Position numbers and translations under genes: made by a program | Origin: a virus | Taxonomy: Duplodnaviria; Heunggongvirae; Uroviricota; Caudoviricetes | DNA: 6,083 nucleotides | Reading direction: 5' to 3' (one strand) | IMG/VR virus record: IMGVR_UViG_2529292885_000013 | Notes under the pieces: generated by a model | Told to the model about the DNA's origin: nothing | Database searches by the model: none | Seen by the model: the letters and a program-made list of their open reading frames with translations, nothing else | Shown here: positions 2,722-6,083 of the stretch, in pieces | How the letters are laid out: every line of letters starts with the position of its first letter | Position numbering within the stretch: position 1 is the first letter of the stretch

Positions 2722-3020
2722 GAATCAACTCCATCAGATAAGCATGCACTACAATCACCTTCAGCATGAACTACATGTGTTTGCCCCAAACGAATGCCGC
2801 TCGCATACTCAGGCCAAATAAGCTCCCAATCATGGGGTCGTAGCTCCGCCCTACTTACTTGGCCTTCCGTCGCAGATTCGATCATAAGGGCGCGGGTTGG
2901 AGATATAGCTGTTCGTCCAGACGCCATTTGCGATAAGTAAGATGGCGATACACCAAGTCTGGCCGCGAATTTCTTAGCATCACCAACCCTTAATGATTTA
3001 ATAAACTCTTTTAATGTCAT
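2718..3020 (-). CDS. ydaS: Cro-like HTH transcriptional regulator (YdaS family)
   Basis: 100-aa ORF with an HTH segment (AKKFAARLGVSPSYLSQMASGRTAISPTRALMIESAT) and an ELRPHDWELIWPE motif that I recall from YdaS/Cro-like prophage regulators. SD GAGGAAGG precedes the ATG. Divergent from the CI-like repressor gene across an operator-rich intergenic region. Confidence 0.75.
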   Translation of the reverse strand: MTLKEFIKSLRVGDAKKFAARLGVSPSYLSQMASGRTAISPTRALMIESATEGQVSRAELRPHDWELIWPEYASGIRLGQTHVVHAEGDCSACLSDGVDS

Positions 3021-3117
3021 ACCTTCCTCGGTTTAGTGTTTTTTTGCGAGTTTAGTGTTTAATAAACCATTAAGTCAAGTATTTGCTTGTTTAGTGATTA
3101 CTAAAGATAATTACCAC
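3021..3117. promoter_or_regulatory. Divergent immunity promoter/operator region (pR-like on minus strand, pRM-like on plus strand) with repeated TTTAGT/ACTAAA half-sites
   Basis: Plus strand: -35 TTGCTT (3083-3088), 17-bp spacer, -10 GATAAT (3106-3111), ATG at 3118. Minus strand: -35 TTGACT (3078..3073), 18-bp spacer, -10 TAAACT (3054..3049). Inverted repeat TTTAGT-GATT-ACTAAA at 3090-3105 fills the plus-promoter spacer; further TTTAGT copies at 3032-3037 and 3051-3056; GTTTA-A-TAAAC palindrome at 3056-3066. Confidence 0.6.
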
Positions 3118-3489
3118 ATGCAAAAAAAAGAAATTCGCCGTTTACGTCTCAAGGAGTGGTTTAAAGATAAAACTCTGCCACCCAAAGAGAAGAGCTACCT
3201 ATCTCAACTAATGAGTGGGAGAGCCTCGTTTGGAGAAAAGGCTGCCAGAAGAATAGAGCAAACATACGGGATGCCGGAAGGGTATCTGGATGCGGAATAC
3301 GCAGAACAACCGGGGGGTTCTCCACCACATGCAGGGTTAACGTCTAATCAACTGGAATTATTGCAGATTTTTTCAGCCTTCCCTGAGGATGAGCAACGCC
3401 AGATAATCAGCGAGTTAAAGCAGAAAAAAGAATCAATGGAAGATCTCATAGCGAGATGGATTGCGGCGCAAAAATGCCGCCGCGCCTGA
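3118..3489 (+). CDS. paaR: CI-like HTH (XRE-family) repressor; candidate PaaR-type regulator of the downstream ParE toxin-antitoxin pair and candidate prophage repressor
   Basis: 123 aa from the ATG at 3118 (MQKKEIRRLRLKEWF...). HTH segment SYLSQLMSGRASFGEKAARRIEQTYGMPEGYLD. Located exactly at the cI position, divergent from the cro-like gene. No SD upstream and a -10 hexamer 6 nt before the ATG suggest a leaderless mRNA. The in-frame upstream ATG at 3055 (144 aa) lies inside the operator region and lacks an SD. Confidence 0.7.
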   Translation: MQKKEIRRLRLKEWFKDKTLPPKEKSYLSQLMSGRASFGEKAARRIEQTYGMPEGYLDAEYAEQPGGSPPHAGLTSNQLELLQIFSAFPEDEQRQIISELKQKKESMEDLIARWIAAQKCRRA

Positions 3490-3509
3490 GTTATAAAACC
3501 GGAGGAAAC

Positions 3510-3701
3510 ATGAATAGAGCCCTTTCACCAATGGTTTCTGAATTTGAAACCATTGAACAAGAAAACAGTTACAACGAATGGCTGCGTGCGAAAGTAGCAA
3601 CGAGCCTTGCAGATCCGCGCCCAGCAATTCCCCATGACGAAGTTGAGCGCAGAATGGCAGAACGCTTTGCTAAGATGCGCAAGGAACGGAGCAAGCAGTA
3701 A
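3510..3701 (+). CDS. paaA: Small antitoxin of a ParE-family toxin-antitoxin pair (PaaA-like, ParE-associated antitoxin)
   Basis: 63-aa ORF from the ATG at 3510 with a GGAGG SD 5 nt upstream (MNRALSPMVSEFETIEQENSYNEWLRAKVATSLADPRPAIPHDEVERRMAERFAKMRKERSKQ). Its stop TAA (3699-3701) is 1 nt before the toxin ATG (3703), indicating translational coupling. Small, charged and helix-prone. Matches my recollection of the 63-aa PaaA2 antitoxin of E. coli O157:H7; paralogue number (1 vs 2) cannot be resolved here. Confidence 0.7.
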   Translation: MNRALSPMVSEFETIEQENSYNEWLRAKVATSLADPRPAIPHDEVERRMAERFAKMRKERSKQ

Positions 3702-3702
3702 A

Positions 3703-3981
3703 ATGTTACCCGTGTTATGGCTTGAAAGCGCAGATACCGACCTAGATGATATAACTAGTTATATTGCTCGTTTCGACATAGATGCGGCTGAACGCTTATG
3801 GCAGCGATTAAGGGGTTGTGTGCTGCCGTTATCCGAACATCCGTATTTATACCCACCAAGCGACAGAGTACCTGGCTTGCGTGAGATTGTAGCCCACCCT
3901 AACTATATAATTCTATACCGCGTAACAACATCAAGCGTTGAAGTAGTAAACGTGATCCACGCAAGACGCCAGTTTCCCTAA
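3703..3981 (+). CDS. parE: ParE/RelE-superfamily toxin (ParE-like)
   Basis: 92-aa ORF from the ATG at 3703 (MLPVLWLESADTDLDDITSYIARFDIDAAERLWQRLRGCVLPLSEHPYLYPPSDRVPGLREIVAHPNYIILYRVTTSSVEVVNVIHARRQFP). Shows the ParE hallmarks: N-terminal W...A..DL..I..YI, central P.LG...R...LRE, C-terminal Y.I.YRV......V.V..V.HARR. Tightly coupled to the upstream antitoxin gene. Confidence 0.85.
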   Translation: MLPVLWLESADTDLDDITSYIARFDIDAAERLWQRLRGCVLPLSEHPYLYPPSDRVPGLREIVAHPNYIILYRVTTSSVEVVNVIHARRQFP

Positions 3982-4006
3982 CTTTCACTACCAATAGAAA
4001 CATAAC

Positions 4007-4046
4007 AACCGCAACGACTTTATCAAAAGCGTTGTGTTTGTTATGT
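4007..4046 (+). terminator. Weak candidate intrinsic terminator downstream of the toxin gene
   Basis: Imperfect hairpin: AACCGCAACG (4007-4016), 13-nt loop, CGTTGTGTTTG (4030-4040; 5 perfect bp plus G-U and mismatch-interrupted pairs), followed by a T-rich tail (tttgttatgt). Confidence 0.25.
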
Positions 4047-4050
4047 CCCG

Positions 4051-4096
4051 CGGTTTAGTTTTTACTTGACTTAAGTTTAATGTTTATTAAACTAAA
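4051..4096 (+). promoter_or_regulatory. pL-like outward promoter with operator half-sites (oL-like), related in sequence to the pR-like element
   Basis: -35 TTGACT (4066-4071), 16-bp spacer, -10 TAAACT (4088-4093). The stretch ACTTGACTTAA...GTTTATTAAAC...CTAAA is shared with the minus-strand reading of the oR region (3050-3082). TTTAGT at 4054-4059 and ACTAAA at 4091-4096 match the oR half-sites. Confidence 0.4.
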
Positions 4097-4411
4097 AATA
4101 CCAACCCACCCCGCCCCACAGAACGCAGGGAAATACTTCGAGTTACCCGGCAGTGGTCAGGGGTTAAGTAGCCAGCCCGAGGCGTATGAACATGACGGCA
4201 GGGTTCAACTTTAATAACTATGCAGCAGTTTTTTGTTCCGCTACCCCGGCGTTAAGGGGAAACAGAGGGTTTCTCAGTGGGCGAAGTCAAACATCAGAAT
4301 GGAAGGCATCCCGGGATCGGCAAAGAAGCAGCAATGGCGCTTTATATTGACATCAGCGCCATTGCAGGACAGGTAAGAGTTATCAGAGCGGTAACTAAGC
4401 GGTATGCGCCT

Positions 4412-4612
4412 TTACTTCAGAAAGTCTCTGGTGAGTGCACCGAAGATATTGTCAACGATTTCGTCATCGAACTGCGAGGACTCATCTTCAGTTACAAGGT
4501 GACCACAATTTTTGCAGATGGCTCCCGCGAAACTGTCAGAGCCCTGCGGCTTAAAGGATGTGTCAAAGACTTCGCCACCACATTCTGGGCAAGAAAACTT
4601 GATTGTATTCAT
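4412..4612 (-). CDS. Small zinc-ribbon protein (CxxC...CxxC), hypothetical
   Basis: 66 aa from the ATG at 4612 (the ORF track starts 2 codons earlier at a TTG). SD AGGA 8 nt upstream. Two Cys pairs (CPEC and CKNC) about 20 residues apart. Codon usage is typical E. coli, whereas the overlapping plus-strand ORF 4277..4633 is rich in rare AGA/AGG/CGA codons. Confidence 0.55.
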   Translation of the reverse strand: MNTIKFSCPECGGEVFDTSFKPQGSDSFAGAICKNCGHLVTEDESSQFDDEIVDNIFGALTRDFLK

Positions 4613-4705
4613 AACCAATTTCCTCTCGAGTAACAGACCCCTCAGAGGATACCACCTCGCCTGACGTGGTTAAAAAGCAGGCAACGCTAACCACAAGGAG
4701 CCGAC

Positions 4706-4924
4706 ATGCAGAAACGAGACCCCGTCATCATCGCGCCAGACTATACCGATGATGAACTTTATGAGTGGATGCACCAGAAAATTAAGGCGGTGCAGGACCT
4801 GAAATGGGCCAATGAAGCCAGGGCTAAGCAGGCTGAAAATCTGTCCGCTCTGGAGCAGGATATCACCAATCTGGAAAAAGCAGCGGCATTAAGCATTGCC
4901 AGAATGATTACATACCCACGTTAA
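4706..4924 (+). CDS. Hypothetical 72-aa prophage protein with coiled-coil-like C-terminal half (occupies the position of a Rac early-left small gene such as kilR; homology unverified)
   Basis: ATG with AAGGAG SD 6-7 nt upstream. Sequence MQKRDPVIIAPDYTDDELYEWMHQKIKAVQDLKWANEARAKQAENLSALEQDITNLEKAAALSIARMITYPR. Followed 22 nt later by the next plus-strand gene. Confidence 0.6.
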   Translation: MQKRDPVIIAPDYTDDELYEWMHQKIKAVQDLKWANEARAKQAENLSALEQDITNLEKAAALSIARMITYPR

Positions 4925-4946
4925 TAGCTAACCAACGAGGCTAATA

Positions 4947-5354
4947 ATGGAATTTAAAGATTTACCAACGCCATTACAGGAAATGGCATCGAATATAGTT
5001 CGTTCACAACTGGCTACTCTTGACCTTAGTACCGCAGAAAAAGAAACCATCGATAATATGGTTCGTAATGTGCGCAATGCTTTTTCTGGGCTATATGGTT
5101 CTGATAATCAAAAGCAGGAAAGCGATGTTAATAAACGGGTAATTTCTGTTTGCGTGAATGGCCATGTTCTTTCATCAATCAAAACAGAAACGGCGACAGT
5201 CTTCGATTGCCTTTGCATTGTACAGAGCCTTGTTGATGCCCTGTTTCGTTCAGTGAATTTAGAAAATGATGCAAATCTGCGAGGGCGCATAATAGCACAT
5301 CCATATGCACATACTTTAGGCTCTGTGGATATCAAAGATCCCACAAATCTTTAA
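4947..5354 (+). CDS. Hypothetical 135-aa protein, AT-rich (moron-like) gene
   Basis: ATG at 4947 with GAGG SD 6 nt upstream. Long ORF in a locally AT-rich block (roughly 38-40% GC by eye versus over 50% in flanks). No family recognised. Confidence 0.6.
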   Translation: MEFKDLPTPLQEMASNIVRSQLATLDLSTAEKETIDNMVRNVRNAFSGLYGSDNQKQESDVNKRVISVCVNGHVLSSIKTETATVFDCLCIVQSLVDALFRSVNLENDANLRGRIIAHPYAHTLGSVDIKDPTNL

Positions 5355-5565
5355 TGAAATAGTTAACGCGAATTGTACTTGCTCTTTCGGTTGCTTTCAG
5401 AATACGCGTTGAAACTGCTGGCGGTAATTTGGTATTCCATTTATTAAAATCATGCCCGGGAAAGTACTCTTCGAAAATACTTTTAACTGCAGACTCGCCT
5501 ATTGAAATGCTGCTTACCATGCGATTTTGATAAAGGCATTTAGCAATAAGAGTTGATTTTAACAT
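5332..5565 (-). CDS. Hypothetical 77-aa protein, convergent with and overlapping the 3' end of the 135-aa gene by 23 bp
   Basis: ATG at 5565 with strong SD AGGAGG (rev-comp of 5570-5575) 4 nt upstream. AT-rich codons consistent with the neighbouring gene. No family recognised. Confidence 0.5.
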   Translation of the reverse strand: MLKSTLIAKCLYQNRMVSSISIGESAVKSIFEEYFPGHDFNKWNTKLPPAVSTRILKATERASTIRVNYFIKDLWDL

Positions 5566-6083
5566 TCACCCTCCTGAGGGTTGGTAATTAAGGAGTTCTC
5601 CACGGGTGAAGTGGAGTGCGTGCGCCGGACACGGGTGAACATCCGGCACTGACAGTTTACTGAAAGGATATTTCTCTGAAAAGTCAGAGCATAACGCGAA
5701 AGCGCACGGCGAGGTTGCTGGTTCATAGATAGCCTGTCGTTAAATTTTCGTCGACCGTGCGCTTCCGGTTGTGGCACTCCGCGAAATGGCGCAGCGGTAA
5801 GTATGGCGGGGTTATTCCTTCCCCGTTGAGGACACCGGGTTGTCAGGTTGACCATACGCTTAAGTGACAACCCCGCTGCAACGCCCTCTGTTATCAATTT
5901 TCTGGTGACGTTTGGCGGCATCTGTTTGCCCATGAACTGATGTCCGCCCTTTTTAAAGTGAATTTTGTGATGCAGTGAATGCGGCTAAGCGCACGCGGAA
6001 CAGTTAAAGCTAAAAACAGTGTTATGGGTGGATTCTCTGTATCCGGCGTTAATTGTTAACTGGTTAACGTCACCTGGAGGCAC

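Follow-up and report, generated by a model that had tools for sequence, protein, structure and literature searches.

The DNA analyzed here is a stretch of 6,083 nt (hereafter the window) from IMG/VR virus record IMGVR_UViG_2529292885_000013 (Caudoviricetes), which represents the immunity and early-left region of a dicBF (Qin)-type lambdoid prophage. A block of low guanine plus cytosine (GC) content at positions 4925-5580 carries two small open reading frames (ORFs) on opposite strands. ORF135 (4947-5354, plus strand, 135 aa, ATG start) corresponds to ECs_1763 of Escherichia coli Sakai (WP_000394552.1), and ORF77 (5332-5565, minus strand, 77 aa, ATG start) to Sakai ECs_1762 (WP_000920491.1). 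The two genes converge and share 23 bp at their 3' ends (5332-5354, both strands), which form the quasi-palindrome AAAGAT-CCCACAA-ATCTTT. A preliminary description of this DNA, made from the letters alone, had reported the low GC content, the overlapping pair and a strong Shine-Dalgarno sequence for each gene. Recomputation bore out all three: the coordinates were exact, the ribosome-binding sites are GAGG (7 nt ahead of the ATG of ORF135) and AGGAGG (5 nt ahead of that of ORF77), and the GC content is 39.5% in the block vs 49.8% (4100-4924) and 50.7% (5581-6083) in the flanks. The block is also the minimum-GC 656-nt stretch of all 6083 bp (minimum 0.389, mean 0.485, sd 0.042).

The same description had placed the block just outside the immunity region. 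This did not hold in the sense in which rexAB are so placed: the block belongs to the early-left operon, in which it lies ~850 nt downstream of the PL933P-type promoter and is flanked by ydfC and the DicF small RNA (sRNA). The promoter and its operators (4063-4095, plus strand), in which the promoter sequence TTGACT...TAAACT is visible, drive the operon containing ORF135. Experimentally, PL933P is repressed ~100-fold by PaaR2 and YdaS, and the authors of that study could assign no function to the ORFs downstream of it (PMC8630535). Because ORF135 is located downstream of PL933P, it is a PL-operon gene and the whole of ORF77 is antisense to the PL transcript; thus, antisense cross-regulation, which had been proposed for the overlap, is possible along the entire ORF77 gene. 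The order ydfC, DicF sRNA and dicB in a repressor-controlled transcript is that of the dicBF operon, in whose 'long untranslated region' (PMC5069750) the block is an optional insert.

On the basis of current results, the block represents one allelic form of a two-gene cassette that can be exchanged; its site, flanked by ydfC and the dicF precursor within the PL operon of dicBF-type prophages, had not been described before. Relative to an empty site, the insertion in the window covers 4943-5577 (type A; GC 38.9%), and alignment with K-12 Qin and four other alleles places its junctions after ...CAACGAGGCT and between CAT and TCACCCTCCTGAGGG. The interval from ydfC to dicF measures 975 nt in the window vs 341-342 nt at empty sites; in K-12 Qin and Sakai prophage Sp12, ydfC is directly followed by the ~340-nt dicF precursor region. 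We surveyed 80 IMG/VR loci fetched with YdfC together with annotated E. coli genomes, and all states of the site used the same junctions. Besides the empty state, which has neither gene and no overlap, at least five filled states could be distinguished. Type A, that of the window, pairs plus-strand 135 aa with minus-strand 77 aa (23 bp overlap), type B 133 aa with 92 aa (41 bp) and type C 106 aa with 91 aa (23 bp). Type D has a plus-strand protein of 124 aa, homologous to that of C, with no minus-strand gene and no overlap, and type E encodes 201 aa, namely the type-A protein to about residue 122 followed by a new C-terminus, opposite a different 63-aa gene (23 bp). Plus-strand domains without their minus-strand partner are therefore found in alleles D and E. 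The three other non-homologous cassettes at this E. coli site that carry a minus-strand gene are also convergent, with 23- or 41-bp overlaps.

Two constant parts could be recognized among these alleles. All plus-strand cassette genes begin with the same N-terminal module (MEFKDLP...KETID), and the minus-strand genes use one common ribosome-binding site and leader (5566-5600, minus strand; AACCCTCAGGAGGGTGAA(A)TG), which is also the right recombination junction; alleles A, B, C and E have it, and D and the empty site lack it. Protein searches suggested further alleles, as predicted proteins of 106-212 aa share the N-terminal module alone. At least 80% of the type-A block was found in 646 of 5426 complete E. 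coli genomes and also in the isolated phage Evi. The exact mosaic of the window (paaR2-type immunity plus type-A cassette) occurred in none of the complete E. coli genomes, the best match being 97.3% over 3000-6083. In O157:H7, cassette A is located in the ompW prophage, which has a different immunity region, and the site in the paaR2 prophage (Sp12) is empty. Thus, the view that the block is accessory cargo was well founded: the site is empty in some prophages, occupied by alternative alleles in others, and its content is horizontally exchanged.

The pair is conserved far beyond E. coli. Among 90 loci with 35 unique protein pairs from at least eight genera, every intact ORF77 homolog converges on a partner gene; the overlap is present in 90/90 intact loci (23 bp, or 26 bp where ORF77 has 78 aa), and 90/90 partners match a hidden Markov model of the C-terminal domain of ORF135 (hereafter the C-domain). 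A distant pair (E 1e-15) keeps the convergent design with a 20-bp overlap. The survey of related prophages that the preliminary description had called for therefore came out in favor of a linked pair, with the 3' overlap conserved across genera. The ratio of nonsynonymous to synonymous change (pN/pS, Nei-Gojobori) across genera was 0.34 for ORF77 and 0.51 for the C-domain, with synonymous sites saturated; within the overlap the ORF77 frame is the constrained one (0.14 vs 1.16 for the partner frame). Sequence comparison thus indicates that both ORFs are genuine genes under purifying selection. The overlap does not look like a terminator, as its stem has just six A/T-rich pairs and a terminator scan found nothing there. 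Findings that had been named in advance as fatal to the idea of an undescribed module, namely matches to well-characterized proteins, an unconserved ORF or lack of co-occurrence, were looked for, and none of them was observed.

ORF77 is identical in 77/77 residues to ECs_1762, which is located in Sakai prophage Sp9 at ompW. In uninduced enterohemorrhagic E. coli (EHEC) Sakai, ECs1762 was significantly enriched in the ultraviolet-crosslinked RNA-associated proteome (TRAPP), and its crosslinking to RNA was confirmed by a polynucleotide kinase (PNK) assay with tagged protein expressed from pBAD24 (Zammit et al., NAR 2025; PMC7618764). The protein has no detectable RNA-binding domains and was assigned no function (PMC7618764). 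The earlier statement that neither protein was recognizable is accordingly right with regard to known families, and wrong in that ORF77 had already been published as a novel EHEC RNA-binding protein. Besides Sakai, the protein has probably also been seen by mass spectrometry in EDL933 (phosphotyrosine at Y69). It should be noted that tagged ECs1762 was over-expressed in Sakai, which still carries ECs1763, and purified; that this was tolerated argues against a constitutively active or strong toxin.

The AlphaFold2 model of ORF77 is of high confidence (predicted local distance difference test, pLDDT, 96.7) and shows a compact, soluble five-helix domain, for which no significant structural neighbor was found in PDB or BFVD. 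Single-sequence and profile searches with ORF77 and ORF135 gave no sequence relative in PDB, and neither these two nor the proteins of the other alleles matched Pfam, NCBIfam or PADLOC; their PHROG matches were all of 'unknown function', that of ORF77 being full-length (phrog_10348, E 1e-47). The name 'dGTP triphosphohydrolase', given to ORF77 in one source, was rejected as spurious for a 77-aa protein, and nothing backs it. Homologs of 77-78 aa, full-length, free of indels and with 55-72% identity, could be identified in Klebsiella, Dickeya, Xenorhabdus, Salmonella, Morganella, Yersinia, Serratia and Proteus. Against 1.84 billion representative proteins, a profile search extended the family to 158 clusters at 50% identity (63 of them at E <=1e-10), nearly all members being stand-alone proteins of 74-80 aa, and a tblastn search of 50,697 phage records gave matches in E. 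coli phages only.

ORF135 also has a full-length PHROG match (phrog_1363, E 5e-47, 'unknown function'), and appears to be composed of two parts. The N-terminal module and linker (4947-5129, plus strand) are the constant part, whose first 50-65 residues match phrog_6937, phrog_2151 and phrog_9419 in all alleles. The C-domain (residues 62-135; 5130-5351, plus strand) is the conserved partner of ORF77 and is homologous to stand-alone partners of 69-80 aa in Dickeya, Serratia, Klebsiella, Salmonella, Proteus and others. Identity of the C-domain between genera is 30-42%, and its best-conserved part is the tail LE.EAN..G[KR]T..H. The AlphaFold2 model of ORF135 is poor (pLDDT 42), with two N-terminal helices, a disordered linker, a beta-hairpin, a helix and a low-confidence tail. 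A search with the C-domain only matched E. coli proteins alone, owing to the word index of the search. Two readings of this partner were discarded: the conserved residues of the C-domain fit neither an HNH nor a Walker-A motif on inspection, and an N-like antiterminator would be expected to have an arginine-rich motif, which is lacking. Three forms of the partner were observed, namely the stand-alone form in most genera, the fusion to the MEFKDLP module in E. coli and a fusion to a YdfC-like segment in Yersinia. The Yersinia protein (157-203 aa; locus L091, 4212-4787, also L177, L179 and L171) joins a segment with 35% identity to the YdfC of the window (E 1e-10) to the C-domain, and such a Rosetta-stone fusion suggests that YdfC and ORF135 may act together. 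As a separate observation, ORF135 is the 'ecs1763' (OI-57) target of polymerase chain reaction (PCR) arrays used for virulence typing of Shiga-toxin-producing and enteropathogenic E. coli. Since ORF135 is a cassette gene, this marker tracks one swappable prophage allele and not a virulence gene.

The position of the pair relative to the repressor was examined in different prophages. Throughout the enterobacterial loci examined, the window included, ORF77 runs antisense to the PL operon. Loci from Serratia, Klebsiella and Salmonella, each with a different repressor specificity, carry the cI/cro operator repeats a second time in the space that separates the cI 3' end from the partner's 5' end; the partner is thus the first PL-operon gene, with ORF77 on the antisense strand. 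In loci L090, L093 and L096, the partner comes first after the OL operators, and it abuts OL in L185 (2080-3700; a high-GC phage contig from Logan SRR30809808), where the pair is inverted relative to its flanks. In L185, a CI-like repressor gene, a gene for a 110-aa secreted protein and the ORF77 homolog (ORF76) follow one another on one strand, much as rexAB of lambda follow cI, and the partner is the lone antisense gene, whose 5' end abuts a gap with the same ATACCNNNNGGTAT operators as OR. Judged by placement, the partner would thus be under repressor control in both layouts and ORF77 outside PL control. The term 'moron', which had been applied to the whole block, therefore suits ORF77, which would be an independently transcribed gene expressed in the lysogen, and does not suit ORF135, an ordinary PL-operon gene.

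With regard to a promoter for ORF77, the homologs outside E. coli have an extended -10 element (TGnTATCTT or TATTCT) ending 30-34 nt ahead of the ATG, which ranked first among the promoter candidates in 6/10 loci and second, again at this position, in one more. For E. coli, the top sigma-70-like candidate (5654-5682, minus strand; TTTTCA-17-TAAACT) was not significant. The leaders of ORF77 homologs contain a conserved block upstream of the ATG (5566-5640 in the window, minus strand), in which CCAC-loop-GTGG is followed by TATCTTGG...CCAAGAAGG. The arms TCTTGG and CCAAGA can pair and would then occlude the ribosome-binding site; the arms differ among genomes yet are complementary (TCTCT/AGGAGA in Dickeya, CTCCT/AGGAG or CCCTC/GGGTG in E. 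coli). This putative hairpin may provide translational control, or it may be an autoregulatory RNA site for the RNA-binding protein. RNAalifold gave only four pairs upstream of ORF77, without useful covariation.

Other antisense genes were noticed in comparable positions. In the Salmonella locus L096, sieB is located directly upstream of the ORF77 homolog on the same strand, as a separate gene. In Sakai Sp10 (L097, 7157-7920), the sieB-like ECs_1937 is antisense in a Rac-type PL operon and overlaps by 4 bp the small PL gene ECs_1939, on which it converges, a layout of the same kind as that of ORF77/ORF135. An antisense pair, PHI80_43/44, is also annotated in phage phi80, where it is located between N and kil (L182, 1905-2170).

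Lysogen-expressed exclusion factors at the PL-proximal end of lambdoid prophages include Nun of HK022 and SieB-Esc of P22/lambda, and Nun acts by binding phage RNA (nut boxB). We tentatively propose, and regard as having a little less than an even chance of being correct, that ORF77 is a lysogen-expressed RNA-binding effector and ORF135 its immediate-early neutralizer, together forming a 'noncontiguous operon' module for defense and self-immunity. When PL is repressed during lysogeny, ORF77 would be made and ORF135 would not, so that the two expression states would be mutually exclusive. The ORF77 effector would interfere with incoming phages and also with lytic growth of its own prophage, and it would probably act on RNA, as Nun does. 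Once PL is derepressed, strong antisense transcription through the whole of ORF77 would silence it by polymerase collision and double-stranded RNA, and ORF135 would be made. Its C-domain and tail (LE.EAN..G[KR]T..H...) would bind and neutralize the ORF77 protein already present, which would make ORF135 the cognate immediate-early self-immunity (counter-defense) protein of ORF77. A defense function of the cassette is suggested only by architecture and by analogy.

The analogy is with a class of demonstrated prophage systems in which a defense gene lies opposite a lytic operon. The hallmarks of this class could be compared with the locus one by one. An effector gene on the opposite strand, within or abutting the lytic operon, is found in ORF77, and a neutralizer gene beside it in a repressor-controlled lytic operon is found in ORF135 with respect to placement only. 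As regards lysogenic expression from a promoter outside lytic control, the ECs1762 protein was seen in uninduced Sakai and probably in EDL933, the extended -10 elements hold their position in other genera, and the E. coli promoter candidate was not significant. No homology to TerI, Tai/Ati or Tha/Ith proteins was detected. Since the architecture is shared and homology to known members is not, we liken the pair to this class, like which it would work, and do not place it in any named family.

A close parallel is TERi of Listeria prophage phi10403S, in which the 65-aa TerI is counteracted by the antidotes anti-TerI1 and anti-TerI2 of the early operon (bioRxiv 10.1101/2025.02.27.640495). In both cases a very small opposite-strand protein (65 aa for TerI, 77 aa for ORF77) is encoded inside the early lytic module and overlaps a sense gene; TerI is transcribed constitutively in lysogeny from its own promoter, and its cognate neutralizers are early lytic operon genes, as ORF135 is a PL-operon gene. 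The systems differ in that there is no detectable sequence similarity, that the partner bound by TerI is the small terminase subunit and ORF77 is instead crosslinked to RNA, and that the ORF77/ORF135 overlap is a precise 3'-3' overlap of 23 bp conserved across genera. Furthermore, defense and self-immunity have been demonstrated for TERi, whereas for ORF77/ORF135 they are suggested by architecture and analogy.

Tai/Ati of phi80 and relatives likewise has an immune gene antisense in a lytic operon, for which the term 'noncontiguous operon' is used; the immune gene is constitutive in the lysogen, and the product of a small adjacent counter-defense gene of the operon binds the immune protein (PMC11364771). 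However, Tai/Ati is located in the late (Q-dependent) operon, is divergent with a 5'-end overlap and targets tail assembly, and Tai has 204 aa, whereas ORF77/ORF135 are convergent in the early PL operon and unrelated in sequence. In Staphylococcus aureus phage 80alpha, the defense gene tha and its inhibitor gene ith are also small overlapping antisense genes, whose expression is mutually exclusive in lysogeny and lysis via antisense transcription (PMC11087260). Tha is a HEPN RNase encoded in the cI operon and its inhibitor is the antisense gene; there is no homology, and ORF77, the proposed effector, is itself the antisense gene, the opposite of Tha, except in the inverted locus L185, in which ORF76 follows the repressor gene as Tha does.

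Compared with Nun and SieB, ORF77 has no arginine-rich motif, SieB Pfam match, membrane segments or known nut-like target. Nun is not known to have a dedicated protein antidote. Neither ORF belongs to the SieB family (PF14163), as neither matches Pfam and ORF77 is modeled as soluble. The pair also recalls toxin-antitoxin (TA) systems of type II and antisense colicin immunity genes in that two small cognate proteins are involved and modules shuffle in a mix-and-match way; one partner (ORF135) combines a structured part with a C-terminal tail of low confidence that may be disordered. On the other hand, type II TA genes form a co-directional, autoregulated bicistronic operon with homology to a known family, whereas ORF77 and ORF135 are convergent and match no TA family, and over-expression of ORF77 is tolerated in Sakai.

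Several results weigh against the proposed defense and self-immunity module. No anti-phage phenotype of the pair has been reported in the literature, PADLOC had no match for either ORF, and no resemblance in sequence or fold to TerI, Tai, Tha, SieB or Nun was found. TRAPP enriches DNA-binding proteins too, and most ORF77 homologs outside E. coli are acidic (isoelectric point 4.9-6.8 vs 9.5 in E. coli), which is uneasy with general RNA binding. No significant ORF77 promoter was found in E. coli, where the position weight matrix score of the best candidate (9.8) equals the median best of shuffled sequence and a promoter scan of 5654-5682 was empty. The low pLDDT of the ORF135 model makes the binding of ORF77 by the tail pure inference. 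Furthermore, one more distant ORF77 family member (L187) has no convergent partner, and damaged copies are found both ways: a 13-bp insertion shifts the frame of ORF77 next to an intact ORF135 in L035, L045, L178 and L180, and IS600 interrupts ORF135 next to an intact ORF77 in O26:H11 FWSEC0001 (L005, 1017-2691). Thus, neither gene is strictly required in cryptic prophages.

The roles of the two proteins might also be reversed, which we consider unlikely but worth serious attention. ORF135 would then act early and against the host, as a takeover or toxic protein whose N-terminal module is constant and whose C-terminal effector varies, comparable to its operon neighbors Kil, DicB and DicF, and ORF77 would be a constitutive cognate antidote that shields the lysogen from leaky PL expression. 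The arrangement would resemble that of pore-forming colicin operons, whose immunity genes are reportedly antisense and constitutively expressed, or an unconventional toxin-antitoxin pair. In alleles A, B, C and E, a constant N-terminus joined to variable C-termini faces small, helical, non-homologous proteins of the minus strand, which is indeed reminiscent of polymorphic toxins; the cassette sits among the known toxic early genes dicF, dicB and kil; and ORF77 is present in uninduced cells. However, orphan toxins are unusual, and plus-strand domains without a minus-strand partner are present in D and E. ORF77 never occurs without the C-domain among its close relatives, as expected of an antidote with no other role, but taken together with the solitary plus-strand domains this supports the direction of defense and counter-defense rather than that of toxin and antidote. 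ORF77 is also the better conserved of the two (identity between genera 57-72% vs 30-42% for the C-domain), whereas the evolution of immunity proteins is usually no slower than that of their toxins; copies with a frameshifted ORF77 and an intact ORF135 persist; the C-domain has no enzymatic or toxin motif; and RNA crosslinking of ORF77 has no place in a pure antidote model. Quite improbable, in our opinion, is a role of ORF77 in lysogenic conversion as an RNA regulator of host or prophage transcripts (for example, sRNAs, the PL leader or the dicF precursor) that is inactivated by its PL-encoded partner at the lytic switch. The screen that found ECs1762 also yielded RhsFI, a pathogenicity-island RNA-binding protein that regulates sRNAs (PMC7618764), the E. 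coli cassette is located immediately upstream of the DicF precursor, and the conserved leader hairpin that would occlude the ribosome-binding site suggests post-transcriptional control. Yet the pair is not beside dicF in other genera, RNA targets have not been reported, a host-directed regulator would need no strictly linked neutralizer, and interchange with non-homologous pairs at the site fits conflict systems better.

That the two genes are functionally unrelated, the overlap being a frozen accident held by tight linkage and by the difficulty of changing it without damaging both genes, appears very improbable. Linkage alone can produce co-occurrence, and one distant ORF77-like gene is partnerless; but the pair is kept across at least eight genera and several different immunity regions, it survives the inversion in L185, the different partner fusions (MEFKDLP, YdfC-like or none) and divergence to relatives at E 1e-15, and three other non-homologous cassettes repeat the convergent overlap design at the same E. 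coli site. We attach next to no probability to the idea that one ORF is a non-coding shadow of the other. Although both ORFs are short and an AT-rich region favors long open frames, the overlap covers just 23 bp, both keep their length and sequence across genera, pN/pS outside the overlap being well under 1, and for ORF77 the idea is already refuted by proteomics.

The module proposed here, with ORF77 as effector and ORF135 as neutralizer, can be extended to a broader picture, which is rather doubtful as a whole, though conceivable. The ORF77 family would consist of prophage RNA-binding immunity proteins of ~75 aa that block phages at the RNA level, following the principle of Nun with an unrelated fold, and each would be disarmed upon induction by an immediate-early partner. 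The ydfC-dicF interval would then be a dedicated hotspot shuffling at least four non-homologous effector/anti-effector pairs by means of the common N-terminal module and the common ribosome-binding site and leader.

The remainder of the window agrees with its assignment to a dicBF-type prophage. Genes for DnaC-like, O-like, YdaT (CII-like) and YdaS (Cro-like) proteins are located on the minus strand. They are accompanied on the plus strand by genes for the PaaR2 repressor (3055-3489), PaaA2 (3456-3701; Pfam E 2e-19) and ParE2 (3607-3981; ParE Pfam E 5e-16), and the genuine TA system of the window is paaA2-parE2 (3456-3981). The segment 3055-4046 is the published three-component paaR2-paaA2-parE2 module. 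It is followed by an inverted repeat with 22-nt arms (4000-4046) that looks like a terminator separating the module from PL. Operator-like repeats of PL were also found in the paaR2/cro intergenic region at 3043-3105 (repeats D1, I1 and I4). Just downstream of PL, a plus-strand ORF of 99 aa (4334-4633; phrog_21318), annotated by PGAP in many genomes, completely overlaps a minus-strand ORF at 4412-4612 with a good ribosome-binding site, which encodes a 66-aa CxxC...CxxC zinc-ribbon protein. The latter scored above the cut-off of NCBIfam NF047912 ('ECs_2282 family') and, of the two, is the ORF annotated in Sakai; possibly it represents another antisense gene within the PL operon. The left flank of the cassette site is ydfC (4706-4924, plus strand; 'protein YdfC' in RefSeq, phrog_1744). 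On the right side, the DicF sRNA (5900-5949, plus strand) was detected with Rfam RF00039 at 43.5 bits (E 3e-7), a score that does not reach the gathering score of 48. The 5' seed region of this copy equals that of K-12, and its terminator stem-loop differs (GGCGGCATCTGTTTGCCCATGAACTGATGTCCGCC vs GGCGGTATCAGTTTTACTCCGTGACTGCTCTGCCGCC). In identical genomes, dicB starts ~42 nt past the window end. An ORF at 5559-5933 (minus strand, 124 aa) was not accepted as a gene: it had no PHROG match, overlaps dicF and is interrupted or truncated in many of the related loci.

If our proposal is true, a new and very compact family of RNA-binding effectors would be added to the few prophage immune systems that have cognate self-immunity, and lambdoid prophages of Enterobacterales would have the 'noncontiguous operon' design at their immediate-early end, too. 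A function would also be provided for ECs1762, an orphan EHEC RNA-binding protein, and for ECs1763, the OI-57 typing marker. In addition, the DicF precursor is longer and altered where the cassette is present, and the expression of DicF and DicB in pathogenic strains may be affected as a result.

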